A stretch of DNA of 64,000 nucleotides from an uncultured Oscillospiraceae bacterium (lineage in GTDB: Bacteria > Bacillota > Clostridia > Christensenellales > CAG-138). Below the pieces are notes generated by a model. That model worked only from the letters and a program-made list of their open reading frames with translations, was not told the origin of the DNA and did not search any database. The position numbers were made by a program, and so were the translations under genes. The stretch covers positions 1,205 to 65,204 of the forward strand of contig CAYZAW010000005.1 in assembly GCA_964476505.1 (NCBI GenBank), read 5' to 3'. Below, in pieces: positions 3,600 through 58,408 of the stretch (its first letter is position 1; the number at the start of each line of letters is the position of its first letter).

Positions 3600-4241
3600 A
3601 TGCAGCAGACGGATATCATCGCGTTCATCAGCGCACTGCCGCTGTTTTCCGGGGTGCCGCAGGCATTGCTTGCATGTATCCCGCAAGAGGAAGGCTTCCT
3701 TATAGAAGAGATCGCCCCCGGCTCTTATGTGATGCAATCCGGCGACGCCGTACGGCGGTTGGGCATTGTGTATAACGGTTCTTTGGAGGTGCAAAAGAAC
3801 AACGATCACACGCATATGCTCATCAACATCCTGCATAAGGGCGACTTGACCGGCGCTACCACGCTGTTTTTGCCGGATGCCGCCGCCGCCAACACACTAT
3901 ATACCAAGCAGGGCTGCACCATGCTGTTTTTTACGGAGGCGCTGCTTCAAACACTGATGCGGCAATGCTTTGCCCTTGCGGAAAACTACATCCGCTACCT
4001 GACCGGGCGCGTTCGCTTTTTAGACGGGCGGGTCAAAAGCATTGCCTCCCCCACCGCTGCGGACAAGCTGTACAACCATCTTCTGCAAAACGCACAAAAC
4101 GGCGTGTTTCGCCCTCAAAGCTCCATGACGGCTCTTGCCACTACTCTGTCTCTTAGCCGCGCCTCCCTGTATCGCGCTATGGAGGAATTGAAGGCAGCAG
4201 GGCTCATCCGTCATGAGAAAAAGACCATTGTATTACAATAG
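3600..4241 (+). CDS. Crp/Fnr-family transcriptional regulator
   Basis: ORF 3576..4241. Preferred start is ATG 3600, behind a GGAGGAGC RBS. It has an N-terminal cNMP-binding-like region (LPLFSGVP...) and a C-terminal HTH (LATTLSLSRASLYRAMEELKAAGLI). Confidence 0.75.
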   Translation: MQQTDIIAFISALPLFSGVPQALLACIPQEEGFLIEEIAPGSYVMQSGDAVRRLGIVYNGSLEVQKNNDHTHMLINILHKGDLTGATTLFLPDAAAANTLYTKQGCTMLFFTEALLQTLMRQCFALAENYIRYLTGRVRFLDGRVKSIASPTAADKLYNHLLQNAQNGVFRPQSSMTALATTLSLSRASLYRAMEELKAAGLIRHEKKTIVLQ

Positions 4242-4254
4242 GAGGTAACTTCTT

Positions 4255-5196
4255 ATGAAAAAGATTTTGTCTGTTGTTCTTGCTCTTGTTCTATGTACCT
4301 TTACACTTTTAGGCTGCGCAAAAGCGCCCGAGGAACCCGTGAAGCTGGCAACGCTGAAGGGCCCTACCGGCATGGGCATGGTATCCCTGATGCAAGAAGG
4401 CGAAGCCGGGTACAACGTTACCCTTTCCTCCGCACCGGACGAGGTGACCGCTATGTTGATCTCCGGGGAAGCGGATATTGCCGCTGTGCCGGTCAATTTA
4501 GGGTCGGTGCTGTATAACAAGCTGGATGGAGATGTGCGCATCATTGCCGCCTCTACGCTTGGCGTACTGTATGTGCTTTCTGCCGACAACAGCGTGCAGT
4601 CCGTTTCCGACCTTGCCGGTAAAACCCTGTACGCCACCGGGCAGGCAGCCACGCCGGAGTACATATTGAATTACATACTCCAGCAAAACGGTGTTGCGGA
4701 CAAAGTTACCGTGGAATACAAGGCGGAGCATAGCGAGCTTGCCGCGCTGTTAGCCGCAGGAGACGTGACCCTTGGCATGCTGCCGGAGCCCAACGTGACC
4801 GCCGCCATGGTAAAAAACCCAAGCCTGCATATTGCGCTTGACCTCACGGACGAGTGGAGCAAAATTACCGATGCAAGCATGGTGCAAAGCGCCATCATCT
4901 GCCGTGCTTCTTATTATGAGGCACACAAGGCGCAGGTAGAACAGTTTTTAGCGGACTATGCGGCATCCGTAGCATTTGTAAACGAAAAGCCCGCCGAAGC
5001 TGCCGCACAGATGGAGGCGCTTGGAATCGTGCCTGCTGCCGCCATAGGCGAAAAGGCCATTCCCAACTGCAACATCGTTTGCCTGACCGGGGAAAACATG
5101 AAAGCTTCCGTATCCGCCATGCTGGATGTACTGTATACCGCCAACCCCAAGAGCGTGGGCGGCGCTGTACCTAATGAGGATTTTTATGTGGGCTAG
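4255..5196 (+). CDS. ABC transporter substrate-binding lipoprotein (NMT1/SsuA/TauA-like family)
   Basis: Signal peptide with a lipobox (TLLGCAK). Binding-protein-like sequence, followed directly by a cognate permease and ATPase with overlapping stop/start codons. Confidence 0.7.
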   Translation: MKKILSVVLALVLCTFTLLGCAKAPEEPVKLATLKGPTGMGMVSLMQEGEAGYNVTLSSAPDEVTAMLISGEADIAAVPVNLGSVLYNKLDGDVRIIAASTLGVLYVLSADNSVQSVSDLAGKTLYATGQAATPEYILNYILQQNGVADKVTVEYKAEHSELAALLAAGDVTLGMLPEPNVTAAMVKNPSLHIALDLTDEWSKITDASMVQSAIICRASYYEAHKAQVEQFLADYAASVAFVNEKPAEAAAQMEALGIVPAAAIGEKAIPNCNIVCLTGENMKASVSAMLDVLYTANPKSVGGAVPNEDFYVG

Positions 5197-9075: not shown

Positions 9076-9720
9076 TTATGCCTCCGCCATCCACTCCGTC
9101 AGATGCCGGTAAATCGCCGCCGCCAGCTTTTTATGCTCTGCCTCGTCCATATGCTCCTGATCGATCTCGCTTGGTACGGCATACTCCGACGCAGCCATAA
9201 ACCCGCAGCCGTATTTTTGTGCGACCCGCCGGTACACCTCTTTTAATCCCTTGGCGGTTTCAACGGATTCCGCAGAGAATTCCGGATCGAAGCCCGGCAG
9301 ATGCACCTTCTCCCCAAGGAGAATGGGCGATACAATAAATACCCCCGGCGCATCCCCGTTTGGGCCGCAGTGGGAGCGCTGTATCACTTCTACCAGCCGC
9401 TCCACGCAATACGCGATCTGATCCGCCGAAATGGAGTAGAAGGATTTACAGTCGTTGGTGCCAAGCATCAGTACTACAACATCCACCGGCTTTGTTAGTT
9501 CCAGCGCCGCAGGCAGAGCGGTGATTCCGTTCTTCCCCGCCCGTGTCTCGTCCTCGAACACCGTTGTACGGCCAACGTTGCCGTCCTCGATCACGCGGCA
9601 GCCGCTTCCTAAGTATTGCCCCAAAAGGCACGTCCAGCGCTGTTGTTCGCTATACCTGCCGGAGCCGTCCGGCTTGTAGCCGTAGGTATTGGAATCTCCG
9701 TAACACAATATCGTCTTCAT
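9076..9720 (-). CDS. SGNH/GDSL-family hydrolase (arylesterase/lipase-like)
   Basis: N-terminal MKTILCYGDSNTYGY block I, a GTND block, and a C-terminal D..H region. It lies 21 nt upstream of the ADH gene, so the two are probably an operon. Confidence 0.8.
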   Translation of the reverse strand: MKTILCYGDSNTYGYKPDGSGRYSEQQRWTCLLGQYLGSGCRVIEDGNVGRTTVFEDETRAGKNGITALPAALELTKPVDVVVLMLGTNDCKSFYSISADQIAYCVERLVEVIQRSHCGPNGDAPGVFIVSPILLGEKVHLPGFDPEFSAESVETAKGLKEVYRRVAQKYGCGFMAASEYAVPSEIDQEHMDEAEHKKLAAAIYRHLTEWMAEA

Positions 9721-9843
9721 GTTTTACAGTATATCAAACCATATAAGGTTTTTCATCAGAAACATTTTCTAAATGATTGCATTGATTTATCCATCTATTA
9801 CGAACATTCTTGCCATGATATGATTTTAACGTTCCATTTTTCG

Positions 9844-9871
9844 TTGACTTTTTCCTTTGTTACCGTATAAT
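9844..9871 (+). promoter_or_regulatory. Sigma-70/SigA-type promoter for carA
   Basis: TTGACT (9844-9849), a 16-nt spacer, then TATAAT (9866-9871), about 35 nt upstream of the carA start. Confidence 0.6.
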
Positions 9872-10976: not shown

Positions 10977-13900
10977 ATGCCTTTAGACGAACGTATCAAA
11001 AAAGTATTGATGATAGGCTCCGGTCCCATCGTGATAGGCCAGGCCGCCGAGTTCGATTATGCGGGCGCACAGGCCTGCCGGGTGTTGAAGGATGCGGGCG
11101 TAAACGTGGTGCTGGTAAACTCCAACCCCGCCACCATCATGACGGACAAATCCCTAGCAGATGAGATCTATTTAGAACCTTTAACGGAGCATACCATCCG
11201 CCGCATCATCGAAAAGGAGCGGCCAGACAGCATACTGGCCTCCCTTGGCGGGCAAACGGGGCTCACCATCGCCATGCAGCTTTCCAAGAGCGGATATTTA
11301 GAGAAAATGGGCGTGCGGCTTTTGGGTACCGATGCCGCGGCCATAGATGCTGCCGAAGACAGGCAGCTTTTTAAAGACACTATGGAGCGCATCGGTCAGC
11401 CGGTGATTCCCTCCGCCATTGCAAACGATGTTGTGCACGCTAAGGAGATCGCAAAGGAAATCGGTTACCCGGTGATCATCCGCCCGGCGTTTACCCTTGG
11501 CGGTGCGGGCGGCGGCGTAGCCTATGATGAAGCGGCGCTTGTGAATATCGCACAAAACGGCTTGGATATGTCTCCCATCACGCAGGTACTGGTGGAGCGT
11601 TATATTTTCGGCTGGAAAGAGATCGAATTTGAAGTGATGCGGGATGCGGCGGATAACGTGATCGCCGTGTGCAGCATGGAGAATTTCGACCCTGTTGGCG
11701 TACACACGGGAGACAGCATCGTCATTGCACCTGCGGTAACGCTATCCGATAAAGAATATCAAATGCTTCGAAGCGCGTCGTTGTCCATCATTTCCGCGCT
11801 GGGCATCCAAGGCGGCTGCAACTGCCAGTTCGCCTTGAACCCCGATAGCTTTGAATACGCGGTGATCGAGGTAAACCCCCGCGTTTCCCGCTCCTCCGCG
11901 CTTGCCAGCAAGGCCACCGGCTACCCCATTGCCAAGGTGACCACAAAAATTGCGCTTGGCTACACGCTGGACGAAATAGAAAACGCCGTTACAGGCAAAA
12001 CCTGCGCCTGCTTTGAGCCTACGCTGGATTACGTGGTGGTAAAGCTGCCCCGCTGGCCCTTTGATAAATTCGTACACGCTTCCCGTGCGCTTGGCACGCA
12101 GATGAAGGCCACCGGCGAGGTGATGGCGATTGCCCCGTCCTTTGAGATGGCTCTGTTAAAGGCCGTGCGCGGTGCGGAAATATCGCTGGACACCCTGAAT
12201 CTAAAAGCCCTTGCCGGCTGCGATTACCGGGAAAAGCTGAAGCAGGCAGACGATTTGCGCCTGTTTACGCTGTTTTATGCCCTCAAGCAGGGCGCAACAG
12301 TAGACGAATTGTTCCAACAAACGCGTATCGACCGTTGGTTCTTATATAAATTAGCACATTTGGCGCAATATGAAACCGCCATAACAAATCGTGTGCTGAC
12401 CGAAGAGCAGTATGCAGAGGGCAAGCGCTTAGGCTACACGGATAAGGCTTTGGAGCGTATCAGTAACAATCCCCTTCCCCTCCACCGCGCACCTGTATAC
12501 AAAATGGTGGATACCTGCGGCGCGGAGTTTGCCGCCCAAACGCCCTATTTTTACGCCACCTATGACGACGAGTGCGAGTCTCGCCCCATCGACCGCAGCA
12601 AGAAGGAGCGCATCATCGTGCTGGGCTCGGGGCCTATTCGCATAGGCCAAGGCATTGAGTTCGACTATTCCTCCGTGCATTGCGCCCGCACCCTGCAGGA
12701 GCTGGGCTACGATGTGATTATCGTAAACAACAACCCGGAAACCGTTTCCACGGACTTTGACACCTCCAACCGCCTGTACTTTGAGCCGCTCTGTGAGGAG
12801 GACGTAAAAAGCATCGTTGCCATAGAGCAGCCCATCGGCGTGGTGGTGGCGTTTGGCGGGCAAACCGCCATAAAGCTCACGAAATCGCTCCATGAAGCGG
12901 GCATTCAAATTTTAGGCACCTCGGCGGAAAGCATCGATATGGCGGAGGATCGGGAACGGTTCGACGCGTTACTGGAAAAATTTCACATCCGCCGCCCCAA
13001 GGGCATGGGCGTGGTCACCAAGGAGGAAGCCATCCATGCGGCAAATACGCTGGGTTTCCCCGTGCTGGTACGGCCTTCCTACGTGATTGGCGGGCAGAAC
13101 ATGACCATTGCCTATACGCCGGAGGATGTTGCGCAGTATATGGACTTGATACTGGCGCAAAACATCGAAAACCCCGTGCTGGTGGATCAATACCTGATGG
13201 GCATGGAGCTGGAGGTAGACGTGATTTCCGACGGCGTAGACGTGCTGATTCCCGGCATTATGGAGCATATCGAGCGGGCGGGCGTGCACTCCGGAGACTC
13301 CATTGCCATGTATCCGCCGCAAAACATTACAGATGCCATGCACGACATCATTGTGGACTGCTCCACCAAGCTGGCGCTTGCCATGGGCACCAAGGGGCTC
13401 ATCAATATTCAATACTTGGTGTATGAGGATGAACTGTATGTGATCGAAGTAAACCCGCGAGCGTCCCGCACCATCCCCTATATCAGCAAGGTAACGGGCG
13501 TGCCTATGGTGGCATTGGCAACCAAGATCATGGTAGGCGCAAAGCTGCGGGAGCTGGGCTACGGCACGGGCTTATACCGCACACCGCCGTATATCGCGGT
13601 GAAGGTGCCCGTATTTTCCTTCGAAAAGCTTTCTGACGCAAACTCAGAATTAGGGCCGGAAATGAAATCCACCGGCGAGGTATTGGGCGTTGGTAAAACC
13701 CGGGAGGAAGCCCTGTTCAAAGGACTGCTGGCGGCGGGCTACCGCCTGCCCCGTTCGGTTTACGAGCGCAAGGGCGGGGTGCTTATCAGCGTAACCAAAA
13801 AAAGCAGGTTGGAGATCATCCGCTTGGCAAAAAAGCTGAACGATCTTGGCCTTACGATCTACGCCACCCCCGGCACGGCGGACTCCATTTCCCAGCTTGG

Positions 13901-46463: not shown

Positions 46464-47234
46464 TTACCCCATATAGGATTGATCCTCGGACAGCATCAGC
46501 ACAGGAACATTACCGCTGGCCGGCCTTACCACGTTTACATCCGCGCCGGGGGCGTATACGATGCAGTTTCGCTGATCCTGCTTCAGTTTTTCCATATAAG
46601 CCTGCTGCTCTTCCTCCGTCATAGGGCCGGGGCGCTGCCCCTCGGGGAATATGGTAATGAATTTCAATGCATATGCATCACAGCCAACAAAATTCCGTTC
46701 ATAGGGATCAAACAGAATAAAGTAGTCGCGGCCGATCTGGCTCATAATACCCGAGCGCGTATACATCATCTGCGTTCCAACTAAAAATTCGCAAACCACA
46801 TAACGGCCCAGAAGATTTGCCAGCCGTTCCTGCAGGGTGCGCGCCTGATTATCGATAATGTACTGCTCCATATTGCTCATGCGCCGCTGCAGCTCGTTAA
46901 CGTTTTCCGGAGAAGTGATACCGGTTCCCTCCCGCGTGAGGATGCTGGCTCCTTGCGGCATGGATGCGTCCTGCCACATGTCACCGCTCTGCTGCATGCC
47001 GCCTGTTTGCTGCATGCCACCTGTTTGCTGCATGCCGCCTGTTTGCTGCATGCCACCTGTTTGCGCCATACCACCTTGCGGTGATGAAGCATTCCATCGG
47101 GACGTTACGCCGCCGCCCTGCCGCATCGCGTTTTCCCATTGTTGCATGGAGTTATACCCCTGCGGCCAACCGTCCTCCTGCATCGTCATATTTCCCGGCT
47201 GTGGCATGCTGTCAATGTTTAAAAATTGCTCCAT
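46464..47234 (-). CDS. gerQ: GerQ-like spore coat protein (Q/G/M-rich repeat N-terminus plus a GerQ-type C-terminal domain)
   Basis: The C-terminal block LLGRYVVCEFLVGTQMMYTRSGIMSQIGRDYFILFDP...LKFITIF parallels the B. subtilis GerQ core (...F.G.I...GRDHIIISDP...YLDYITF). The N-terminus is Gln-rich, as in GerQ. It is adjacent to a cwlJ-family gene. Confidence 0.6.
   Translation of the reverse strand: MEQFLNIDSMPQPGNMTMQEDGWPQGYNSMQQWENAMRQGGGVTSRWNASSPQGGMAQTGGMQQTGGMQQTGGMQQTGGMQQSGDMWQDASMPQGASILTREGTGITSPENVNELQRRMSNMEQYIIDNQARTLQERLANLLGRYVVCEFLVGTQMMYTRSGIMSQIGRDYFILFDPYERNFVGCDAYALKFITIFPEGQRPGPMTEEEQQAYMEKLKQDQRNCIVYAPGADVNVVRPASGNVPVLMLSEDQSYMG
46991..47080 (-). repeat. Tandem 18-bp coding repeat (4 near-perfect copies plus 1 degenerate) inside gerQ-like
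   Basis: GCTGCATGCC(G/A)CCTGTTT repeats at 46991, 47009, 47027 and 47045. It encodes (TGGMQQ)n: ...GGMAQTGGMQQTGGMQQTGGMQQTGGMQQSGDM. Confidence 0.9.
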
Positions 47235-47260
47235 CTGGAACCTCCTGTCTTTTCACTACA

Positions 47261-47632
47261 TTATGTTTCCGCATAGGCGGAAGTGGGCGCATAAAAGCAA
47301 TGATCGCCTATGCGCGCAGCGGCATAGCCTACCCGGCTTGGAAAATTGGTGGGGCATTGGCTGGAATAAGGGTTAAAAAACCAAAGCGCTTCTCCGGCAT
47401 CCCGAATGCGATTCCCGGCAATGGCCCAATCCGCAATATCATAATGAATCTGCTCCGGACGCATGTTATAGATGTTTTGCCCGTTGTTGTCATCCATGGC
47501 GCATTCAAATTGATACTGCTGATAAATGATGTTGCGTATGCTGCCGCTGCCAACGCGGGCATACTCGCCTTCATTTGTATTGACGCGGTTCATCACCACT
47601 CCCGCGACAGCCTTCATCCCGTTATCCCCTTC
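47261..47632 (-). pseudogene. cwlJ: cwlJ/sleB-family cell-wall hydrolase, 3' segment (about 120 codons) of a gene split by the inserted element
   Basis: Track ORF 47261..47617 (MKAVAGVVMNRVNTNEGEY...HCFYAPT) matches the Hydrolase_2 (SleB/CwlJ) catalytic domain minus its first ~24 residues. The frame is open upstream through ...EGDNG to the junction core at 47625-47632. There is no RBS or start appropriate for a full domain. Confidence 0.85.
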
Positions 47633-47660
47633 ATGATACGCAATAAAGGCAAACTGTTGG

Positions 47661-49238
47661 TTAATACAAAATCACATCAATACTATGGTCGTTTACGATA
47701 ACGTGTTGAATGAGGGAACGGGCGATTTTCTGTTTGGTCTTCATATCAAAATCATTAAATTGCTCAATAATCGTCTCAATGCTTACCCCGCAATTCATAT
47801 TCTTCTTTCGCTCATTATCAGCGTTGTATAATGCGCCCAATTCCTTATGCTTTTGCTCTATTGAACGCGTGTATTCGTCAAGGCGTTTTCTCAATGCGCC
47901 AATACTTGAATCCAAGCCACTCTCACGAGCAATTTCAATTTCATCTAATAAGTTGGAGCAACGGTTGTCCAATCGTGCAATCTCGTTCTTTATTTCAATC
48001 GCACGCTGGTTTTCCTGCTTATCGGTACTTGTTGCTTCTATGCACCGCAGTTCATTGAGACGATACATCATCTTGTTATATACAAAGCACTCGATTTCTT
48101 CAAGCTGCCAAGCATGTTCACGTCCTGTACAAACATGTTTCTTGCGTCCATAGCAGTTTACATAATTACGACCTCGATTGTTATTAACAACCGTAAGGCC
48201 ATATCCACATTTCCCGCACCGCATAAGGCCGCTTAACCATGAATGCGTTCCGCTTCTGTCGCATTTAACTTGTTTGTTATTGTCTAATTTATACTGGCAA
48301 GCCAACCATACCTGCGAATCGACTATACCTTCGTGCGGTGCAAGCGTAACAAATGCATTTGAAATATTCGCAAATGTTTTTCCGTTCTTCTTTTTTACAT
48401 AATTGTATTCTTCCAGCTCTTTCTTGGTTCGTTCAATGTTTTTTGCATAGATGTAACAGCCGTTCGTCCCCGCATAACAGCTAATATCATCGTTCATTGT
48501 TGCACCCTTACCGTTTAAATACTGATAAACCATAGCATCTGCTTTCACATAGCAAGGATGCCGCAGCAGTCTTGCAAGGCCGGGACCGTCAAAGTTATAT
48601 CCGCGCATCGTCTTAATACCCATTTCGGTGAGTTTTACCGTCAATTTCCCCAGAGATACGTTGGTCGTGGCATATTCATGATAAATAAACTTGATAGTAT
48701 CTCGTTTTGATTCATCCACTTGATAAGCGGCGGTTTTCTTGCCATGTAGTTGAATATCAACCTTGTTATACCCAAATGGCGCATAACCGCCAAGATAGAA
48801 GCCCTTTTCCGCGCGGCTAAAAAAGTTATCTGCAACTCTCTCGGCAATCGTGTTTCTCTCCATTTGTGCAAATACCATGGCTATCATTATCATTGCCTCG
48901 CCCATTGACGTTCTGGTATCGAATTTTTCGCTACACGAAATAAACTGTACATTGTGGCTCTTCATAAGCTCCCATGTATTGCAGAAATCAAGTAGATTTC
49001 TACTTATTCGGTCAAGTCTATAGACGATAATCGTCGAAATCTGGTCATTCCTGATATCATCTAAAAGCCGTTGAAATTCTGGTCGTCCAACAGCATTCTT
49101 ACCGCTTCGGCTTTCTTGATAGACTATCACACTGTCCTGCTCGGATATCTGTTGGCGGCATAACGATATCTGGTCTTCAATAGACAAGCTATCCTTTTTT
49201 TCTATGGATTGACGCGCATAAATAGCGCATTTTTTCAT
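47661..49238 (-). CDS. Large serine recombinase (resolvase catalytic domain, recombinase domain, zinc ribbon, coiled-coil)
   Basis: ORF 47661..49283; the start MKKCAIYARQS at 49238 follows GAGGTG. It has the catalytic Ser context AIYARQSIEKKDSLSIEDQ, then VYRLDRISRN, a zinc-ribbon C..C...C pattern (LMRCGKCGYGL...CYGRKKHVCTG), and a long C-terminal helical region. No frameshift or premature stop. Confidence 0.9.
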   Translation of the reverse strand: MKKCAIYARQSIEKKDSLSIEDQISLCRQQISEQDSVIVYQESRSGKNAVGRPEFQRLLDDIRNDQISTIIVYRLDRISRNLLDFCNTWELMKSHNVQFISCSEKFDTRTSMGEAMIMIAMVFAQMERNTIAERVADNFFSRAEKGFYLGGYAPFGYNKVDIQLHGKKTAAYQVDESKRDTIKFIYHEYATTNVSLGKLTVKLTEMGIKTMRGYNFDGPGLARLLRHPCYVKADAMVYQYLNGKGATMNDDISCYAGTNGCYIYAKNIERTKKELEEYNYVKKKNGKTFANISNAFVTLAPHEGIVDSQVWLACQYKLDNNKQVKCDRSGTHSWLSGLMRCGKCGYGLTVVNNNRGRNYVNCYGRKKHVCTGREHAWQLEEIECFVYNKMMYRLNELRCIEATSTDKQENQRAIEIKNEIARLDNRCSNLLDEIEIARESGLDSSIGALRKRLDEYTRSIEQKHKELGALYNADNERKKNMNCGVSIETIIEQFNDFDMKTKQKIARSLIQHVIVNDHSIDVILY

Positions 49239-49290
49239 TGGTATATCACCTCTTAAATAACTTAATGGATGAGACGCTATCAATGAGCCT

Positions 49291-49488
49291 CTACGGTAAC
49301 CGGTCTTGACAATGCTTAATAACCGAAGTAGCTATTTGCTTATTGAGCCTTGCACGTTCATTGTCGGTCATTGCCGTCTCAAATACATTGTCGCTGACTT
49401 TTTTACATTTCACCGGCGGATAGCCTTTAATCATGATGTTATACTCATCATTTGTAGAGTCGTATGACATTACCATTTTATAACGCAC
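49291..49488 (-). CDS. Small hypothetical protein immediately upstream of the recombinase gene
   Basis: A 65-aa ORF (or 61 aa from MVMSYDS), 52 nt upstream of and co-oriented with the recombinase. No recognisable motif. Confidence 0.35.
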   Translation of the reverse strand: MRYKMVMSYDSTNDEYNIMIKGYPPVKCKKVSDNVFETAMTDNERARLNKQIATSVIKHCQDRLP

Positions 49489-49800
49489 CGCCTATCCGTT
49501 ATAAATATGGAGCCATACTTTGGCTTATTACTGCTGCAAAGTATCCTTGAAACGCATGCAGATGCAAACTGCCGGATACTGGCTGCAGTTGTGCATGCGA
49601 CGCTAAATCGACAGTCGCTTACGATATAAAGAGTACTATCTGCGAATTGAACGCAAGGGATATGATAATCAACATGATTATTACTTGATACAATACAAGG
49701 TCTACTGAACGCAATAGCAGTGAAAATATGCAAACCATAATACGCTTTCGGGTAACTAATACGTTAATTATCTGAAAGCGCTATTCGTCTACGCGAAATA

Positions 49801-51585
49801 TTGAAAATGCTTACCCTGTGTGATACAATATATGCTATATTTATGGCAATTACTCAAATTGATCATTATTCTGTTTACAGTCATATCACGAACACAAAAA
49901 CGGCGTATCCACGATGGTTAGAGAGAACGGGAGAAAACGCAGTAATGATTAAAGACTTAGAGCGCGGCAATATGTTGTTGGAAAGCATACAGACGCTGAA
50001 CGAGGCCGCTATACACTTATATGAAATGATGTTGGATGAAAGCGATGAAACGATGGAGTTTGCGCAGGAAATAAGGCAACTCATCGTTAGCATGCAAGAG
50101 TCGTTTGATGCATTGTACGCAGAGGAAAACGCCCTTATGGGGCAGCTTATTAACAAGAATGCGCTGTATTCGTTGGACAATTTAATGCGTTATGCTAAAA
50201 CCGATTCTAAGGCCGCCTGCCATAAGTTGCAGTTTGAGTTTCTTCCGCTCACCGCCGAGCTTTATGTTGATCTATATTTCTGGGGCTTCTGCTATCCGGA
50301 CAAGGATAAGATGTGGAACTATTACCGCACGGAAATGAACGAGTTGTGCCCTCTGCCAGTCCCTGAAAACGGCGAGTACAAGTATGATGTTTCTGTGGTG
50401 ATCATTGCATACAACAAGCTAGAATATACAAAAAAGTGCATCAAGTACTTTCAAGAATTCTTCCCACATGAACTGAATTATGAGTTGATACTTTACAATA
50501 ACGGCTCCAATGACGGCACAAAAGAGTTCTTTGAAACTCTTCACCCCAATAAGCAGATCGATCTGCTGCGCAACACGAAGAGCTGGTCGATATTGAGCCG
50601 TGTGGCAGAAGGGAAATACATACTTACCGTTGCAAACGACGTGTTAATACTGCCAAATGCCATCCAGAATCTTATAAAATGTATTGAAAGCGATGAGAGT
50701 ATATGCTGCGTTATGCCAGCATCGCCTAATGTTGCAAATTACGAATCCATACCTGCTTCCTATCGGGACGAAGCAGAAATGATAGAATTTGCGCAGAAAA
50801 ACAATGTGGCCGATTCTTCCCGCTGGGAACAGCGAGCGAGACTTAATCCGCCGCTTTTGTTAGCACGGAGCGATTCTTCGGCGGTGCATACACTCTGCAC
50901 ATATCATTATCCGTTCATGCCGGACAGATTTCTTGCATTTACCGACGATGCCATGAGCTTAGTTGCACGAAGAAGCAAACAAAAGTGTATTTTGGCGAAA
51001 GATGCATACATACACCATTTTGGAAGTGTAACAGTTAGCGATGTATTTTATAATGCAAGAAACGATATGTCGGAGTTTTACTCAAAAGGCCGCAATGGTT
51101 TTTTGCGTATTTTTGATATCGACCCTTGGAGTGTGGGTTTCTGCTACGACGCTGAACTGGTTTTTTCCCTAATGTACGATCTCAAACAGCCAACGAACAT
51201 ACTGGGCGTGAACTGTGGTATGGGCGATACAATGCTAAAAATCAAGGCAATGCTTGGCAGTTGCTGCCATAATACGAATGTTGGATTATATAACATAACG
51301 GACAATCTTTCTTACAAAGACGATCTAGCCGGGCTTTCTGACAATTTTGCGTTCATTGCCGAATGGGAACAGGTTGAAAATACGTTCAATGGTGTCAAAT
51401 TCTCCTATATTGTCATTGAGGATGTAACCGAAGGCGCAGCGTCAGAGAAAACGCTGAAAATGCTGTTTGCGAAGCTAATAGCAGGCGGCGTGATGGCTGT
51501 AAAACATCCAAATACAGTGTTTGTGGACGATCGGTGTAACAAAACAGACAAAACGGAGCACTGGCGGAAATTCTATAAAAGCTGA
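49801..51585 (+). CDS. Multidomain glycosyltransferase (helical N-terminal region, GT2 domain, C-terminal methyltransferase-like domain)
   Basis: GT2 signature VSVVIIAYNKLEYTKKCI...NNGSNDGT... and DD/DxD-like TVANDV. The C-terminal segment ILGVNCGMGD... resembles class I SAM-MTase motif I. The start is uncertain; ATG 49945 (MIKDLERG) is the alternative. Confidence 0.65.
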   Translation: MKMLTLCDTIYAIFMAITQIDHYSVYSHITNTKTAYPRWLERTGENAVMIKDLERGNMLLESIQTLNEAAIHLYEMMLDESDETMEFAQEIRQLIVSMQESFDALYAEENALMGQLINKNALYSLDNLMRYAKTDSKAACHKLQFEFLPLTAELYVDLYFWGFCYPDKDKMWNYYRTEMNELCPLPVPENGEYKYDVSVVIIAYNKLEYTKKCIKYFQEFFPHELNYELILYNNGSNDGTKEFFETLHPNKQIDLLRNTKSWSILSRVAEGKYILTVANDVLILPNAIQNLIKCIESDESICCVMPASPNVANYESIPASYRDEAEMIEFAQKNNVADSSRWEQRARLNPPLLLARSDSSAVHTLCTYHYPFMPDRFLAFTDDAMSLVARRSKQKCILAKDAYIHHFGSVTVSDVFYNARNDMSEFYSKGRNGFLRIFDIDPWSVGFCYDAELVFSLMYDLKQPTNILGVNCGMGDTMLKIKAMLGSCCHNTNVGLYNITDNLSYKDDLAGLSDNFAFIAEWEQVENTFNGVKFSYIVIEDVTEGAASEKTLKMLFAKLIAGGVMAVKHPNTVFVDDRCNKTDKTEHWRKFYKS

Positions 51586-51600
51586 TAAGGGGGTAGTCGC

Positions 51601-52374
51601 TTGAAGGTTGTAATTCTTGCTGGAGGCTATGGTACGCGCATCAGCGAAGAAAGTCAATTACGGCCAAAGCCTATGATCGAAGTCGGTGAACAGCCGATTC
51701 TTTGGCATATCATGAAGCTGTATTCCCATTATGGGCATAATGAATTTATTATTTGTGCCGGGTATAAACAGCACATGATCAAAGAGTATTTTGCGGATTA
51801 TTATCTACATCGTTCGGACATTACATTCGATTTTACACAGGACAATGCTATGACGATCCATAACAATGTGGCGGAGCCTTGGCGTGTTACCGTTGTGGAT
51901 ACAGGGTTGGACACCATGACGGGCGGTCGTGTGAAGCGCGTACAAAAGTATATTGGAGACGAACCATTCCTTTTAACTTATGGCGATGGCGTATCCAATG
52001 TGAATATCAATGCTTTGGTGGATTACCATAAAAAAAGCAAGAAAATTGCGACACTTACAGCCATCCAACCGGGAGGCCGCTTTGGCGTATTGGACATTGA
52101 CGCAGATAATATAATTAAAAACTTTGCAGAAAAGTCCAAGGAGGACGGCGGGTGGATCAACGGTGGATTTATGGCATTGGAGCCTTCTATATTTCGGTAT
52201 ATCGAAGGAGATACAACCATACTGGAGCGTAAGCCGCTAGAAACGCTTGCCCAAGAAAACCAACTTAACGCGTTCTTACATGATGGCTTCTGGCAATGCA
52301 TGGATACGTTACGGGATAAAGAGCTTTTAGAACGGCTTTGGAAAAGCGGCGAAGCACCGTGGAAGGCGTGGTAA
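51601..52374 (+). CDS. rfbF: Glucose-1-phosphate cytidylyltransferase
   Basis: MKVVILAGGYGTRISEES..RPKPMIEVGEQPILWHIMKLYS...FIICAGYK is near-canonical RfbF. TTG start after AAGGGGG. Confidence 0.9.
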   Translation: MKVVILAGGYGTRISEESQLRPKPMIEVGEQPILWHIMKLYSHYGHNEFIICAGYKQHMIKEYFADYYLHRSDITFDFTQDNAMTIHNNVAEPWRVTVVDTGLDTMTGGRVKRVQKYIGDEPFLLTYGDGVSNVNINALVDYHKKSKKIATLTAIQPGGRFGVLDIDADNIIKNFAEKSKEDGGWINGGFMALEPSIFRYIEGDTTILERKPLETLAQENQLNAFLHDGFWQCMDTLRDKELLERLWKSGEAPWKAW

Positions 52375-53466
52375 ATGATTGATTTAGAATTTTATAAACA
52401 TAAGCGGGTGTTTATTACCGGGCATACGGGCTTTAAAGGCGCATGGATGTGTGCGGTATTGCTGCAACTGGGAGCGGAAGTATCAGGGTACGCCTTAACA
52501 CCGCCTACCAACCCCAGCCTATACGCGTTAACGGGAATACAAAACAATATGAACTCCGTTTTAGGAGATGTGCGTGATTTCGATGCGCTGGCTGTTGCAA
52601 TGTGTGCTGCGCAGCCTGAGATCGTTATTCATATGGCGGCGCAGCCAATTGTACGGGAGGGTTATCGCGATCCCGTAGGAACATATGCAGTGAATGTAAT
52701 GGGTACCGTACATGTGTTCGAGGCGGCGCGCCGCTGCGGCACTGTTCGCCTGATTATAAATGTTACAACAGACAAGGTCTATGAGAACAATGCGGACATC
52801 ATGTATACGAACGGCTATTGTGAAACGGACCGGCTCAATGGCTATGACCCGTATTCCAATAGCAAATCATGTTCTGAACTGGTTACGGAATGCTACCGGC
52901 ACCTGTTGGTAAATAGTGATGATGGGCAAGCGAGTATCTCGGTTTCTTCCTGTCGCGCAGGAAATGTTATTGGCGGAGGGGATTTTGCGAAAGACCGGAT
53001 AATTCCGGATTGTGTACGGGCAATGAAAGAAGGTCGGCGCATCACGGTTCGCAATCCTTACTCTATTCGTCCATATCAGCATGTTCTGGAGCCGGTGTTC
53101 GCTTATTTAATCATTGCACAAAAACAGTTTGCTGATACGCGGTATGCGGGTGCATATAACATTGGCCCAAACGATTGCGATTGCATCACAACAGGCATGC
53201 TAGCGGACTTGTTTTGCGCGGCGTGGGGCTCTAACGCAGCTTGGGAGAACGTTGCTGAGAAAAACGCACCTCACGAAGCGGCATTCCTGAAGCTGGATTG
53301 CTCAAAAGCGAAAAGCATACTGGGCTGGGAGCCGGTATGGCATATAGAAACAGCAGTACAAAAAACAGTAGAGCTGGCGAAGGTATGGCTTGCAGGAGAA
53401 GACATGGCACAAGCAATGGAGGGGCAAATCCTGGAGTATATTAAGGATTGCCAATCATTGATATAA
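52375..53466 (+). CDS. rfbG: CDP-glucose 4,6-dehydratase
   Basis: FYKHKRVFITGHTGFKGAWM...GYAL.PPT.PSL N-terminus, a YSNSK catalytic motif, 363 aa. Confidence 0.9.
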   Translation: MIDLEFYKHKRVFITGHTGFKGAWMCAVLLQLGAEVSGYALTPPTNPSLYALTGIQNNMNSVLGDVRDFDALAVAMCAAQPEIVIHMAAQPIVREGYRDPVGTYAVNVMGTVHVFEAARRCGTVRLIINVTTDKVYENNADIMYTNGYCETDRLNGYDPYSNSKSCSELVTECYRHLLVNSDDGQASISVSSCRAGNVIGGGDFAKDRIIPDCVRAMKEGRRITVRNPYSIRPYQHVLEPVFAYLIIAQKQFADTRYAGAYNIGPNDCDCITTGMLADLFCAAWGSNAAWENVAEKNAPHEAAFLKLDCSKAKSILGWEPVWHIETAVQKTVELAKVWLAGEDMAQAMEGQILEYIKDCQSLI

Positions 53467-53494
53467 TTGCTGAGGCGTACTAGGGAGAAGGAAT

Positions 53495-54727
53495 ATGAAG
53501 AATATGCATTGCCGCAGCTGCGGGCAAACATTGGAGCATGTTTTTGTGGATTTGGGGATGTCTCCTCTTTCCAACTGTTACTTATCGGCGAATCAGCTTG
53601 AAAACGGGGAGAAATTTTATCCTTTAAAGGCATATGTGTGCGACAAGTGTTATTTGGTTCAGCTGGGCGAATACGAATCACCGGAGACAATTTTCAGCGA
53701 TTATGCGTATCTTGCTTCCTATTCGAACAGCTGGCTCTTGCATTGTGAGCATTATGTAAACATGATCACTCAGAAGCTAAAGCTTTCCACAGAATCCAAG
53801 GTGATCGAAATCGCCAGTAATGACGGATATTTGCTGCAATACTTTGTACAGCGTAAAATCCCCTGCCTAGGCATCGAGCCTGCGGCGAATGCAGCAGCCG
53901 TTGCAAGGGAAAAAGGGGTAGCAACCGTAACGGCTTTTTTTGGCACCGATTTAGCCAAAAAGCTAAAATCAGAAGGAGAGCAAGCTGACCTTCTTTTAGG
54001 CAACAATGTACTGGCGCACGTTCCGGCAATCAACGATTTTGTGGCGGGAATGAAGATTCTACTCAAACCATCCGGCGTAATTACAATGGAATTCCCACAT
54101 TTGCTGAATTTAATACGTTATAATCAGTTTGATACCATTTATCATGAGCATTTCTCATATCTTTCTTTTTCAACGGTATCACGGGTATTCGCCGCCAACG
54201 GACTTCGCTTGTTCGATGTTGAAAAGCTGCAAACCCACGGGGGGTCACTTCGTATCTATGCTACGCATGCGGAAAACAACGACTACCCTGAAACAGACGA
54301 GGCCAAAGCACTGTACGCGCAGGAGGAGGCGTTTGGCTTAAATGGGCTAACGGCATATCATTCCTATTTTAAAAAGGTACAAGCGACAAAACGCAGTATT
54401 TTATCCTTCTTGATTCAAGCAAAAAACGAAGGAAAACGAATTGTCGGATACGGTGCGCCCGCAAAGGGGAATACACTGCTAAACTATTGCGGCGTTCGGG
54501 ACGATTTTATCGATTTTACCGTCGACAGAAGCCCTTTGAAGTATGGAAAGTATTTACCGGGTACGCATATCGCTGTACGGCCTGTTGAAGCAATATGCCA
54601 GGAAAAACCGGACTATCTTGTGATATTGCCGTGGAACTTGAAGGATGAGATCATGGAGCAGTGCGCCTATATCCGAAATTGGGGCGGAAAATTCGTTACG
54701 TTGATACCGGAAGTGGAAGTATTATGA
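53495..54727 (+). CDS. NDP-hexose C-methyltransferase family protein (Zn-ribbon, class I MTase, C-methyltransferase C-terminal domain)
   Basis: It has an N-terminal CRSCG...CDKC zinc ribbon, FSDYAYLASYSNSW, and an IEIASNDGYLL SAM motif. The architecture resembles TylCIII-like sugar C-methyltransferases. Confidence 0.75.
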   Translation: MKNMHCRSCGQTLEHVFVDLGMSPLSNCYLSANQLENGEKFYPLKAYVCDKCYLVQLGEYESPETIFSDYAYLASYSNSWLLHCEHYVNMITQKLKLSTESKVIEIASNDGYLLQYFVQRKIPCLGIEPAANAAAVAREKGVATVTAFFGTDLAKKLKSEGEQADLLLGNNVLAHVPAINDFVAGMKILLKPSGVITMEFPHLLNLIRYNQFDTIYHEHFSYLSFSTVSRVFAANGLRLFDVEKLQTHGGSLRIYATHAENNDYPETDEAKALYAQEEAFGLNGLTAYHSYFKKVQATKRSILSFLIQAKNEGKRIVGYGAPAKGNTLLNYCGVRDDFIDFTVDRSPLKYGKYLPGTHIAVRPVEAICQEKPDYLVILPWNLKDEIMEQCAYIRNWGGKFVTLIPEVEVL

Positions 54728-55260
54728 TATTTACACCAACAAAATTTGACGGTACATTTTTACTTACGCAGCAACGTATGGAGGATGAGCGGGGGTTCTT
54801 TGCGCGTACGTTCTGCGCCGAAGAATTTCGGGAGCGAGGGCTTTACGAACACTTTGTTCAGTGCAGCATTTCTCACAACAAAGCAAAGGGAACCCTGCGC
54901 GGGATGCACTTTCAGTCACATCCCTATGAAGAAGTGAAGTTGGTTGCATGTATACGGGGCGGTATATTTGACGTGATCGTGGATCTGCGCAAGGATTCCT
55001 CTACATATTTATTATGGGAAGGCTTCGAACTCACGCCGGAAAACGGCAGAATGCTATATATTCCCCAAGGGTTTGCCCATGGGTTTCTTACGCTGTCGGA
55101 TGAAAGCGATGTATATTATCAAATGTCTGTCCCATACCATAAAGAATGTGCCACAGGGATCAGCTATCAGAACAAACGGGTCGGTATTCACTGGCCGGTA
55201 TCGGGCGAATTGGTTATATCAACGGCAGACCGCGAACGAGACAAGGAGTATTTGCCATGA
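54724..55260 (+). CDS. RmlC-like cupin NDP-4-keto-6-deoxyhexose 3,5-epimerase family protein
   Basis: ORF 54661..55260; ATG 54724 forms an ATGA overlap. The RmlC pattern ERGFFARTF...TLRGMHFQ...E.KLV.C..G.IFDV.VDLR is present. Confidence 0.85.
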   Translation: MIFTPTKFDGTFLLTQQRMEDERGFFARTFCAEEFRERGLYEHFVQCSISHNKAKGTLRGMHFQSHPYEEVKLVACIRGGIFDVIVDLRKDSSTYLLWEGFELTPENGRMLYIPQGFAHGFLTLSDESDVYYQMSVPYHKECATGISYQNKRVGIHWPVSGELVISTADRERDKEYLP

Positions 55261-56150
55261 ATAAGGTGCTGCTTACTGGCGCGAACGGCTTTATTGGGCG
55301 GTATTGCGTGAACGCCTTTCTTGATGCCGGCTTTGATGTATATGCAGCATGCCATAGTGATATGGCCGGCTTGCCGCAAAACGCGCATTGTTTTCTATGG
55401 GATATTAAAAATACGCAGGAAGTCATTAAACTGATGTCCGCAATAAGGCCATCGCATCTTGTGCATTTGGCATGGTATGTTGAACCAGACACCTATGTAC
55501 ATGCGGATGAAAATATCGACTGGCTGCAATACAGTATGTTTTTAATAAAGGCATTTGTTCAATCTGGAGGCAAGCGGTTGGTAACGGTTGGCACGTGCTT
55601 TGAGTATGATTTGAATCATAGCGTGTTTCAGGAGAACAGCACGCCGTTAATGAGCAATTCTCTGTATGCCACAGCAAAAACTAGCCTGTTTCGGCTTTCT
55701 TCGGTCTATTGCCATAATCATGGTGTAGAATACGCTCATGCGCGGCCATTCTATCTGTTTGGCATCGGAGAAAACGAAAAACGCGTGATTCCGCATATTA
55801 TATCAAGCCTGCTGCAGAGGCAACAAGTACAGGTTTCGCATGGAGAACAAGTTCGGGATTATTTATATGTTGCAGATGTGGCATCTGCACTCGCGGCAGT
55901 TTCTGCTTCAGAGATATCAGGCGCTGTAAACATTGGATCCGGCATAGGAGTGCAGCTGAAGGAATTGTTTTTGATGATCGAACGAGCAACCGGTTGTACG
56001 GGGCTGGTGCAGTTGGGAGCAATCCCGACTAAGCCAAATGAAGCACCGGTAATTATAGCGGACAACAGACGCTTGCTGTGTGAAACAAACTGGCGGCAGA
56101 AGTACAGCTTGGAAGCCGGTCTTCAAGAGACGATAGCGGCTATGCAATGA
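55257..56150 (+). CDS. NAD(P)-dependent sugar epimerase/reductase (SDR family)
   Basis: ORF 55146..56150; ATG 55257 overlaps the preceding stop. It has a VLLTGANGFIGR Rossmann motif and a YATAK catalytic Y-x3-K. Confidence 0.8.
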   Translation: MNKVLLTGANGFIGRYCVNAFLDAGFDVYAACHSDMAGLPQNAHCFLWDIKNTQEVIKLMSAIRPSHLVHLAWYVEPDTYVHADENIDWLQYSMFLIKAFVQSGGKRLVTVGTCFEYDLNHSVFQENSTPLMSNSLYATAKTSLFRLSSVYCHNHGVEYAHARPFYLFGIGENEKRVIPHIISSLLQRQQVQVSHGEQVRDYLYVADVASALAAVSASEISGAVNIGSGIGVQLKELFLMIERATGCTGLVQLGAIPTKPNEAPVIIADNRRLLCETNWRQKYSLEAGLQETIAAMQ

Positions 56151-56205
56151 ATTGGCTGGCCAGGTTTGCTTATTAACTACTGAATATGATATAAGGAGAA
56201 TAATT

Positions 56206-56940
56206 ATGGATCAAAACACAGCGTTTAGAATGGAACGTACCGCTGCGGCAGAGCAAATGGCGCAGGACGAAAAGTTGAATGCGCTTTCACTCGAGTGGAT
56301 GCAGCGGGCAGAGAAACACAAGTATTGCTATAATTATACATGGATGGGCCGTCCGATCATCAAGTTTCCTAATGATATCGTATTGGCGCAAGAAATCATT
56401 TGGGAGGTAAAGCCCGATCTGATTATTGAAACCGGTATTGCCCATGGCGGTAGCATCATCTTTTCCGCTTCTATGCTGGAACTTTTAGGAGGAAACGGCG
56501 AAGTGGCGGCTGTGGACATTGACATTCGTTCTCATAATCGGAAGGCAATTGAGGAACATCCAATGGCAAAACGCATTAGGATGTGGGAAGGCTCCTCCAC
56601 GGATGAAAAAATCGCCAATGAGATTCGAGCGTTGGCGCATAGTAAGAAGAGCGTTATGGTTTTTTTGGATTCGCTACACACGCACGATCATGTTTTGCGC
56701 GAGATGGAGATTTACGGGCCAATGGTAACCGTAGGCTCCTTTATGGTGGTTATGGATACCTGCATTGAAGCATTTCCGGCAGGCACTTATCAGGACAGGC
56801 CTTGGGATGTAGGAAACAATCCGATGACTGCAGCGAAAGCCTATTTAAAGGATCATAACGAATTTATAGTGGATAATGATTGTTGTAATAAGCTTTGTAT
56901 TACGGAAGCTTTTAGCGGATATTTAAGGAAGGTTCGTTAA
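56206..56940 (+). CDS. CmcI / cephalosporin-hydroxylase-family methyltransferase (sugar O-methyltransferase-like)
   Basis: ORF 56152..56940; ATG 56206 follows AAGGAG. YNYTWMGRPIIKFPNDI...KPDLIIETGIAHGGS is typical of the CmcI family. Confidence 0.75.
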   Translation: MDQNTAFRMERTAAAEQMAQDEKLNALSLEWMQRAEKHKYCYNYTWMGRPIIKFPNDIVLAQEIIWEVKPDLIIETGIAHGGSIIFSASMLELLGGNGEVAAVDIDIRSHNRKAIEEHPMAKRIRMWEGSSTDEKIANEIRALAHSKKSVMVFLDSLHTHDHVLREMEIYGPMVTVGSFMVVMDTCIEAFPAGTYQDRPWDVGNNPMTAAKAYLKDHNEFIVDNDCCNKLCITEAFSGYLRKVR

Positions 56941-57039
56941 ATACGCACTCCCTATGGCGGCTTGCGTAAAAGCGGAGTGCCGGGAGAATGACATACCGTA
57001 TCTGGTTTAAGTGGATAAGTAGGAGTGGTTATTATCTTT

Positions 57040-57260
57040 GCAGCTTTCTAAAAGCAACGCCATGCAGCAGCACCGCAAGAAGGTCGTGGAACATCCCTTC
57101 GGAACTATCAAGTGGCATGACGTAGCATACTATTCTTTGCCGTGGTAAGGAAATGGTCAGTGCCGAAGCTCCACTGAGCTTCACGGCATATAATCTCCGG
57201 CGGGCAATCAATACGGTAGGCACAAAAGCGTTTTTACTGTATCTCTATGCCCAAAAACGG
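57040..57260 (+). pseudogene. Remnant of an IS (IS1182/IS5-like) transposase C-terminus, frameshifted
   Basis: One frame gives ...QQHRKKVVEHPFGTIKWHDVAYYSLPW*. After a 1-nt shift the sequence continues as (G)KEMVSAEAPLSFTAYNLRRAINTVGTKAFL. The VEHPFGxIK ... AYNLRRAIN pattern is the conserved C-terminal end of DDE transposases of this group. The roughly 400 upstream codons are missing. Confidence 0.6.
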
Positions 57261-57336
57261 AGCAAAACGAAAAAATGCGGAGCTGCAAATCTAAAAAGAT
57301 GGATAAATTGGAGTAGAGTTCTGAGCAGAAAAGTAC

Positions 57337-57363
57337 AGCGACGGCAAAACCGTCGCTCTTTTT
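57337..57363 (+). terminator. Intrinsic terminator
   Basis: AGCGACGG-CAAAA-CCGTCGCT followed by CTTTTT. Confidence 0.65.
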
Positions 57364-57416
57364 GATACAAAAATGTCGAGAAACTCCCTAATTTAGGAAG
57401 CTTCCGGACAGGGTGT

Positions 57417-57493
57417 GGTGGAGATAAGGGGACTCGAACCCCTGACTTCTGCATTGCGAACGCAGCGCTCTACCAAGGTGGTACGCATCCCCT
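57417..57493 (-). tRNA. tRNA-Ala(CGC)-like sequence with a defective D-arm (probable pseudo-tRNA)
   Basis: The 77-nt sequence is GGGGATG CGTACCACCTTGGTAGAGCG CTGCG TTCGCAA TGCAG AAGTC AGGGG TTCGAGT CCCCT TATCTCC A CCA. The acceptor stem pairs and includes G3:U70. The anticodon arm (CGC) and T-arm are canonical and CCA is encoded. Where GCTC should pair with GAGC in the D-stem, the sequence reads TACC(A). Confidence 0.5.
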
Positions 57494-57585
57494 GCCCTTT
57501 TTACTCCCCCAGATTTTTTCTGAGGGAGTTTCTTAATGCCAAGGCAACGTACTACACGCTCTTTATGTTGTGTTCCATTATTGCG

Positions 57586-57650
57586 TCTCCTTCGCCACCC
57601 GCTTCGCATTGGATCAAGCGCGCCAAAAGCTCTCTGTCTGAAAAGGGCAT
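57586..57650 (-). pseudogene. cwlJ: cwlJ/sleB-family cell-wall hydrolase, 5' segment (22 codons) of the split gene
   Basis: GAGGAG RBS, then ATG at 57650. The sequence MPFSDRELLARLIQCEAGGEGD matches the conserved N-terminal helix of SleB/CwlJ (LLAR.I..EA.GE). The frame then enters the element and ends after 10 unrelated codons (AIMEHNIKSV*) at 57552. Confidence 0.85.
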
Positions 57651-57667
57651 GCTGCTCCTCCTGCCTG

Positions 57668-58408
57668 CTACGCCGTGCGTACATACTGCCGCGCCGCATA
57701 GCCTGTTGTTCCGTTTGCGCGAACCACATACCAATTTCCCGTTCGCCCTAAAATTGTTAAAGCCGCGCCGTTAGGCAGCTGGGTCAATACAACAGAGTCC
57801 GTACTGGGGCGGCTGCGGATATTCAGCCCGCCGCCTGCTGTCGCCACCGTGCCGCGCTGGGGCGCCAGCGGCTCTACAAACGGAATCCCGAAATACTCCG
57901 TAAGCGACCTTGCGATGTTTCTGGCGATCTCCGGCAGATTGTTTACGATCCAGTTGGCATCCTGCGGATTGTCGTGATATGCAAGCTCAATAAACACCGC
58001 CGGCGCGCGTGTTTGCCGCACCTCCCCGATGCGGGTGGTGGAAAGGGTGCGTACCCGCTGGGGCAGCGGATATATCTGCTGCAAATTTCTTGCGATGATT
58101 CCCGCCGCTCGTTCCCCGCTCACGCTGTTAGGCGCATAGTAGATATCCGTGCCGCGCACCTGCCCGGAAAGCGCGTCCGGCGCAGCGTTGGAATGCAGCG
58201 CCAGATGCAGGTCGTAATTACCGCTGTTAGACGCGCGTATGGACGATACCGCCGTCATATCCTTGGTATTACGCGTATATTGAATCCCGCTGGCCACCAG
58301 ATACGGAATAAGTTCATCCGCAAGAAGATTCATATAATACTCTTCACTGCCGCCAATGGTATAGGGATTCCCTTCCTGTGTAGATGGGCTGAGGTAAATA
58401 ACCGGCAT
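57668..58408 (-). CDS. N-acetylmuramoyl-L-alanine amidase (Amidase_3) with a C-terminal SH3-like domain
   Basis: ORF 57668..58591; the start MPVIYLSPSTQ at 58408 follows GGAGGG. It has HLALHSNA and FIELAYHDN zinc/catalytic contexts, and a C-terminal LNIRSRPSTDS...GNWYVV SH3_3 pattern. It lies 17 nt upstream of the cwlJ 5' segment. Confidence 0.8.
   Translation of the reverse strand: MPVIYLSPSTQEGNPYTIGGSEEYYMNLLADELIPYLVASGIQYTRNTKDMTAVSSIRASNSGNYDLHLALHSNAAPDALSGQVRGTDIYYAPNSVSGERAAGIIARNLQQIYPLPQRVRTLSTTRIGEVRQTRAPAVFIELAYHDNPQDANWIVNNLPEIARNIARSLTEYFGIPFVEPLAPQRGTVATAGGGLNIRSRPSTDSVVLTQLPNGAALTILGRTGNWYVVRANGTTGYAARQYVRTA

Follow-up and report, generated by a model that had tools for sequence, protein, structure and literature searches.

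Very probably, the two junctions analyzed here are attL and attR, the attachment sites of a 9,961-bp element that its own large serine recombinase (LSR) inserted into a cwlJ-like gene for a spore cortex hydrolase in the window, i.e., the whole 64,000-nt stretch of DNA examined. We found that the boundaries of the element are exact, that joining its flanks restores an open reading frame (ORF), that the recombinase carries the full LSR domain set, and that the rebuilt attP displays a dyad symmetry that is conserved in related elements. We are close to certain that this att-site architecture is real. The coordinates of all features are collected in Table 1.

Table 1. Junctions, element, and split gene, given as window positions
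Feature	Position	Strand	Description
Left junction, outer string	47625-47632		TCCCCTTC
Left junction, middle string	47633-47638		ATGATA
Left junction, inner string	47639-47646		CGCAATAA
Right junction, inner string	57578-57585		TTATTGCG
Right junction, outer string	57586-57593		TCTCCTTC
Left CCTTC copy	47628..47632		Identical in attL, attR, attB, and rebuilt attP
Right CCTTC copy	57589..57593		Shared block
attL	47609..47654		Host B half-site 47609-47630; predicted crossover TC 47631-47632; element P′ half-site 47633-47654
attR	57570..57615		Element P half-site 57570-57591; predicted crossover TC 57592-57593; host B′ half-site 57594-57615
Integrated element	47633..57593		9,961 bp; position of the ends ambiguous by up to 5 bp inside CCTTC; defined by empty site L005
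Large serine recombinase gene	47661..49238	-	525 aa from the ATG at 49238; ORF open from the TTG at 49283
Candidate directionality factor ORF	49291..49476	-	61 aa, directly upstream of the recombinase gene
Cargo	49801..56940	+	Seven sugar-nucleotide and glycosyltransferase genes (Pfam matches)
cwlJ-like gene, 3′ part	47261..47632	-	Codons ~20-142 and stop
cwlJ-like gene, 5′ part	57592..57650	-	ATG at 57650; codons 1-20, MPFSDRELLARLIQCEAGGE

An initial annotation of this region had assigned five short strings to the two junctions, and rereading the window placed all five exactly where they had been reported, including the direct repeats that flank the element with 7/8 identity. The annotation took these repeats for a shared core of 8 bp; the direct-repeat strings themselves stand, but the true identity shared between the sites is only CCTTC, as revealed by a natural empty site. 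Specifically, a metagenome contig (L005; ENA ERZ15185968, 1,194 bp) consists of window positions 46674..47632 joined to 57594..57828, with a single SNP (at 46769), and contains the predicted attB, GTTATCCCCTTCGCCACCCGC. Because this contig equals the window with exactly one segment removed, the element comprises positions 47633-57593. The predicted attB and both boundaries are matched base for base across the joint, and recombination was conservative and precise, with no duplication or loss of target sequence. Coverage of the contig was low (0.83x), and it may come from a strain that never carried the element rather than from excision.

The empty site reads TCCCCTTC, with C where attR has T. 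Since the empty site has C at the mismatched position of the 7/8 repeat, the T at 57588 is element sequence and the crossover falls within CCTTC (Table 1). The base immediately to the left of this block (C at 47627, T at 57588) is that of attB at the attL junction and that of the element at the attR junction. Read in this way, the "8-bp core" is the central dinucleotide plus a similarity of one P and one B half-site, with the two matching bases to the left being incidental. Of the two joints that the annotation proposed to look for, the attB joint is present in L005, whereas the attP joint (predicted to carry CCATTATTGCGTCTCCTTCATGATACGCAATAAAGG) is absent from two contig collections: an exact search of metagenome contigs and viral contigs for the 24-mer TTGCGTCTCCTTCATGATACGCAA found no excised circle.

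Joining the right end of the element to its left end yields TTATTGCGTCTCCT-TC-ATGATACGCAATAA, with 12/14 complementary arm positions. We scanned every possible center within 8 bp for dyad symmetry, and the 30-bp palindromic attP with 12/14 arms described in the initial annotation was recovered. All 16 neighboring dinucleotide centers scored ≤7/14, the best single-base center scored 8/14, and shifting the center by one base from TC brought the score down from 12/14 to 4/14 (background). The symmetry reaches past 30 bp (15/20 and 17/22 arm matches about TC), and within the arms the inner 6 bp match at only 4/6 positions. The rebuilt attP of ~46 bp reads GTGTTCCATTATTGCGTCTCCT-TC-ATGATACGCAATAAAGGCAAAC, which is an imperfect dyad about TC, a non-palindromic dinucleotide that reads GA on the sense strand of cwlJ, and its length agrees with the ~40–60 bp of an LSR attP. 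This pattern is not due to chance: among 200,000 random junctions built from the window, a score of ≥12/14 had a P of 1e-5 at a fixed center and of 4e-5 to 5.5e-5 for the best of 9 centers. As annotated, the central TC lies inside CCTTC, and it is common to attL, attR, the natural attB of L005, and the rebuilt attP. Dyad symmetry was also looked for in attB and none was found (1/14 at TC); we do not count this asymmetry against the model because the attB of SprA likewise lacks symmetry (PMC5499854).

Related elements occupy the same cwlJ insertion point, with recombinases 44–59% identical to that of the window (L001, L002, L004, L247/L248, L087/L250, L167-L169, L179, and L252/L253). The recombinase gene directly precedes the 3′ fragment of the cwlJ homologue in L001, L002, L004, and L247/L248; in L087/L250 and L167-L169/L179, it abuts the cwlJ 5′ fragment instead. 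The elements of the former group are phage-like (NrdD, dUTPase, and DNA polymerase III alpha), and proteins of L247 match Pfam families named after SPβ proteins (YomW, YomX_C, and YonD_N). Contig L003 carries the same recombinase as L002 and continues into phage DNA, i.e., it represents the un-integrated form and thus holds a real attP, TGTCCTTTCATTTC-GTTGCGT-GA-AGGTAAT-GAAATGAAAGGACA. In this attP, the 14-bp arms of a perfect inverted repeat flank a 16-bp spacer, and the center is GA, the reverse complement of TC (11/14 and 18/22). A second complete element, with both junctions, is present in L168 (8,954 bp; shared core TTCAC), and its rebuilt attP is centered on the same TC (8/14 and 13/22). 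Its cargo is non-phage, with ORF translations read as GNAT-like, CbiB-like, aminotransferase, radical SAM enzyme, and FeoB proteins. No attR partner half-site or cwlJ 5′ fragment was found in the 10-kb upstream flanks of L001 and L002, which are shorter than the prophages.

In the window's own species, an identical attL (100% identity) is present in L251 (from SRR8925725), and L252 (1-530) and L253 carry a different element, whose P0001-type recombinase is 59% identical to that of the window, at exactly the cwlJ position used in the window. The flank of L252 is 100% identical to the window, and its junction reads ...CCTTTACATTGTTACCA|GAAGGGGATAAC. The cwlJ site is therefore a hotspot: one species has alleles in which it is empty, occupied, or occupied by another element.

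More distant recombinases abut other truncated genes. Those that are 34–36% identical lie next to a truncated dpaA (spoVFA) broken at its conserved LPGK motif, and those that are 40–42% identical lie next to a truncated asparagine synthase gene (L089 ~1538-2240 and L090 ~4057-4760; L088 ~11509-11960 and L170 ~1591-2290). These cases suggest that the wider recombinase clade targets several sporulation-associated genes.

The initial annotation had pinned the crossover to TC. The dyad center and the relatives single out the same dinucleotide, although sequence identity alone also allows CC, CT, and TT, as CCTTC is identical in all four sites and a cut at any of these dinucleotides would yield the observed junctions. 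One alternative therefore keeps the recombinase and its sites as proposed and places the staggered cut at TT (47630-47631 / 57591-57592) or at another dinucleotide of CCTTC. Since the core of L168 (TTCAC) and that of the window overlap only at TTC, TT or TC remain if the geometry is conserved, and so this comparison still permits TT. Against it, the dyad center is TC in three independent attPs (the window, L003, and L168), and the one-base shift in the window attP abolishes the symmetry. In addition, the host codon in L004 is GAG, which keeps GA and not AA, so that a TT/AA register would read AG; and characterized LSRs cleave at the dyad center (PMC5499854). Experiments on SprA of SPβ located recombination at the center of a highly symmetric attP, with no obvious symmetry in attB (PMC5499854). 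A cut at TT or elsewhere in the block is improbable in our view.

Comparison of the arms with related elements, which the initial annotation had proposed, points the same way. When anchored on the central dinucleotide, ten element half-sites, drawn from six elements, line up without a gap and share TGTGTTC at -22..-16, TTxATT at -14..-9, and T at -1. Specifically, the P′ half-site of the window (reverse strand, GTTTGCCTTTATTGCGTATCAT-GA) is in register with the recombinase-proximal half-sites of L001, L002/L003, L004, and L252. The recombinase gene is found at one end in some elements and at the other end in others; on the sense strand of cwlJ, however, the central dinucleotide is GA in every case, as would be expected if the dinucleotide sets the polarity of insertion. 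Taken from symmetry and alignment, cleavage is likely to occur exactly at TC.

The recombinase gene ends with its stop codon 28 bp from the left end of the element. Its product matches Resolvase (PF00239, 3.5e-33), Recombinase (PF07508, 1.2e-11), and Zn_ribbon_recom (PF13408, 1.4e-8), all above cutoffs, as well as the PHROG 95 integrase (4.5e-90), and the catalytic serine motif YARQS is invariant in an alignment of 11 relatives. Judged by this full LSR domain set, the protein is a complete large serine recombinase. Its closest counterparts in the protein collection, from which the window's own recombinase is absent, are 44–59% identical. Among isolated-phage integrases, the best match is 37% identical, and by this measure the enzyme is without a characterized close relative. 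The match to YokA/SprA in the PDB (E 1.4e-9) covers the catalytic domain only. XisF is the best NCBIfam match (108.7 bits against a cutoff of 375), and the recombinase falls outside the XisF equivalog because its score is below that cutoff. A scan of genome contigs with the single recombinase protein as query gave no confirmed relative, and an alignment-based scan of the same contigs gave one close locus, L087.

In every close relative, a homologue of the 61-aa ORF lies just upstream of the recombinase (L001-L004, L087, L250, L247-L249, L167, and L168; HMM E 1e-25 to 1e-38), and the ORF has no Pfam or PHROG family match. By its position and conservation, and by analogy with SprB, GirX, and Skr, we consider it a candidate recombination directionality factor (RDF). 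In L001, an IS200-type Y1 transposase gene (9410-9868) is inserted between the small ORF and the recombinase gene.

The flanks of the element, joined on the minus strand, form a 142-aa ORF that begins MPFSDRELLARLIQCEAGGEGDNGMKAV and encodes a single-domain Hydrolase_2 protein (Pfam, 1.8e-22). It is 100% identical over all 142 residues to a natural protein (P0121) encoded on L005. The in-frame insertion interrupts the Glu codon of a conserved motif, CEAGGEG, and the joint made in silico restores the ORF without a scar. The only NCBIfam similarity of the joined protein is to spore_SleB, below cutoff; by size and domain content, the split gene is classed as cwlJ-like. CwlJ acts in germination, and expression of the split gene in the mother cell is our assumption, made from B. 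subtilis cwlJ.

Directly downstream of the cwlJ-like gene, a Q-rich protein of 256 aa is encoded on the minus strand (46464-47234), and a similar Q-rich gene follows cwlJ in the hosts of L001, L002, L168, and L247. The protein is reminiscent of GerQ, which partners with CwlJ in B. subtilis, but it matches no family in Pfam or NCBIfam, and neither database supports an assignment as GerQ. A further cwlJ homologue (P0122; L006 1413-2105) contains an internal tandem duplication, in which residues ~1-97 are followed by ~17-142. The two copies meet at a GCGGGC microhomology, only a few bases away from the codon of the att crossover, and the duplication may be an assembly artefact or a recombination scar.

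The GC content is 0.40–0.49 inside the element and 0.53–0.57 outside, with the shift between ~47.6 and 57.5 kb. No phage genes were found in the element of the window. By Pfam, the cargo comprises a GT2 fusion, a nucleotidyltransferase, a 4,6-dehydratase, a Methyltransf_13/14 C-methyltransferase, a 3,5-epimerase, an NAD epimerase/reductase, and an RMNT_CmcI O-methyltransferase, with a sigma-70-like promoter match at 49801-49829. Taken together, these genes resemble a full pathway to a nucleotide-linked C-methyl, O-methyl 6-deoxyhexose, accompanied by a glycosyltransferase; that the sugar might decorate the spore surface is speculation.

A tRNA-Ala-like pseudogene lies on the minus strand at 57416-57492, ~100 bp inside the right end of the element. 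Its acceptor stem (G3:U70), anticodon arm (CGC), and T arm are intact, and its D arm is replaced by a TACCA-CCT-TGGTA hairpin. The Rfam tmRNA/tRNA clan scored 29.6 bits, below the gathering score of 47, and ARAGORN called no tRNA at this locus. The sequence is 81–87% identical to the 3′ halves of phage tRNA-Ala genes and may be the relic of an earlier tRNA-linked island.

Two readings of the element itself compete with insertion by its own LSR or with a role in development. A transposon with terminal inverted repeats and an 8-bp target-site duplication would offer an explanation for two features, namely, the perfect inverted repeat of 8 bp close to the two ends and the direct repeat (7/8) on either side of the element. 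However, the inverted repeats are not terminal, as one abuts the direct repeat and the other lies 6 bp in, and they are symmetric only about TC. The supposed duplication is imperfect, with a variant base that differs from the empty site, and the shared block in L168 is a different 5-mer. The element encodes a complete LSR rather than a transposase, and all relatives sit in the same codon, a site-specific behavior atypical of transposition. We therefore rejected the transposon reading, given the offsets of 0 and 6 bp, the imperfect repeat, and the lack of a transposase, and regard it as having next to no probability.

Insertion by the element's own LSR could instead have produced an ordinary integrative island, i.e., one with real att geometry that inactivates cwlJ and is not excised during sporulation. 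Several observations agree with such an island: no sporulation-type promoter was recognized upstream of the small ORF and the recombinase gene (a promoter scan near the recombinase gave weak sigma-70-like matches only), the search of metagenome and viral contigs found no attP circle, and empty, occupied, and differently occupied sites within one species are as expected from the turnover of mobile elements. On the other hand, the insertion is in frame and reversible without a scar, and both the recombinase and the small ORF are intact and conserved. Moreover, sister recombinase clades adjoin truncated dpaA and asparagine synthase genes, and all described interrupters of sporulation genes use an LSR with a small RDF (PMC5499854, PMC5595907). 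We give the ordinary island a substantial chance, if one somewhat short of even.

Returning to the att-site model, the element's own LSR would have inserted it into the Glu codon of the CEAGGEG motif, so that each junction combines a half-site of the element with a half-site of the host. In line with the established LSR mechanism (dimer binding, synapsis, a 2-nt 3′ staggered cut, and subunit rotation), a recombinase dimer would bind each site and four subunits would synapse; both strands would then be cut at the central dinucleotide to leave a 2-nt 3′ overhang, the subunits would rotate, and the ends would be rejoined. Upon excision, 47632 would be joined to 57594, the 142-aa ORF would be intact again, and a circle with attP would be set free. 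A separate RDF should be needed for this step, and the conserved 61-aa ORF is the candidate for this role. A further-reaching proposal, which we put forward tentatively and hold to be rather doubtful on balance, is that, in gut Clostridia, cwlJ is a hitherto unrecognized hotspot for elements that are excised during development. A recombinase clade dedicated to this site, together with a new family of small RDFs of its own, would target the catalytic-motif codon from SPβ-like phages and non-phage islands alike, and germination-competent spores would form only after excision in the mother cell.

The element is of the same type as skin/sigK, SPβ/spsM, vfbin/spoVFB, vrin/spoVR, gin/gerE, and yin/yabG and follows the standard LSR att design. 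The geometry of its att sites and their mechanism are standard; what differs here is the target gene and the recombinase clade, with its phage and island carriers. In the literature searched, we found no paper that ties cwlJ to an intervening element, nor did we find the recombinase clade.

The closest parallels are SPβ and gin. In Bacillus subtilis, the SprA/SprB system of SPβ in spsM (PMC5499854, PMC4191935) has an LSR gene beside one end of the prophage and splits a spore-envelope gene, and the same arrangement is seen in the window. In both systems, attP is symmetric about a dinucleotide within a short block shared with attB, and attB is asymmetric. A small RDF is encoded nearby in SPβ, as is the candidate 61-aa ORF, which matches no Pfam or PHROG family, in the window, and several relatives of the window recombinase reside on phages with the SPβ-named Pfam families. 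In contrast, SprA and the window recombinase are distant (E 1.4e-9 over the catalytic domain only), and the targets (spsM versus cwlJ), the dinucleotides (AA versus TC/GA), and the lengths of the shared block (16 bp versus 5 bp) differ; SPβ is also a prophage, whereas the element of the window is free of phage genes. The gin element (GirC/GirX) in gerE of Bacillus cereus ATCC 10987 (PMC5595907) is non-prophage and splits a sporulation gene, like that of the window, and pairs an LSR with a very small RDF (a candidate in the window). It has a 9-bp consensus at the junctions and a 27-bp imperfect inverted repeat, features with counterparts in the window, and cleavage was predicted to occur at the dinucleotide midway through this repeat (PMC5595907), by the same logic that the initial annotation used. 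The two differ in target (gerE versus cwlJ), host (Bacillus versus a gut Clostridia-type genome), and cargo, and GirC/GirX are active in vitro (PMC5595907), whereas the activity of the window system is predicted.

The remaining systems are further removed. The skin (SpoIVCA)/sigK, vfbin/spoVFB, vrin/spoVR, and yin/yabG elements are prophage-derived or degenerate and split mother-cell genes, and their removal by an LSR restores the reading frame (PMC4191935, PMC5025042, PMC10747680). None of them targets cwlJ. XisF of the Anabaena fdxN element is likewise an LSR of a gene-interrupting element and excises it during development, but the organism and target differ and the window recombinase scores below the XisF cutoff.

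LSRs are in demand as genome-integration tools, and the system described here is an uncharacterized LSR that is fully specified, with a predicted ~46-bp attP and attB and a candidate partner RDF, and is ready to test. The presence of related recombinases at the same site on both SPβ-like phages and phage-free cargo islands points to a shared integration module. For sporulation, cwlJ is a possible addition to the split spore genes sigK, spoVFB, spoVR, spsM, gerE, and yabG. If developmental excision at cwlJ is true, the sister recombinases at split dpaA and asparagine synthase genes would extend this strategy to further mother-cell genes.
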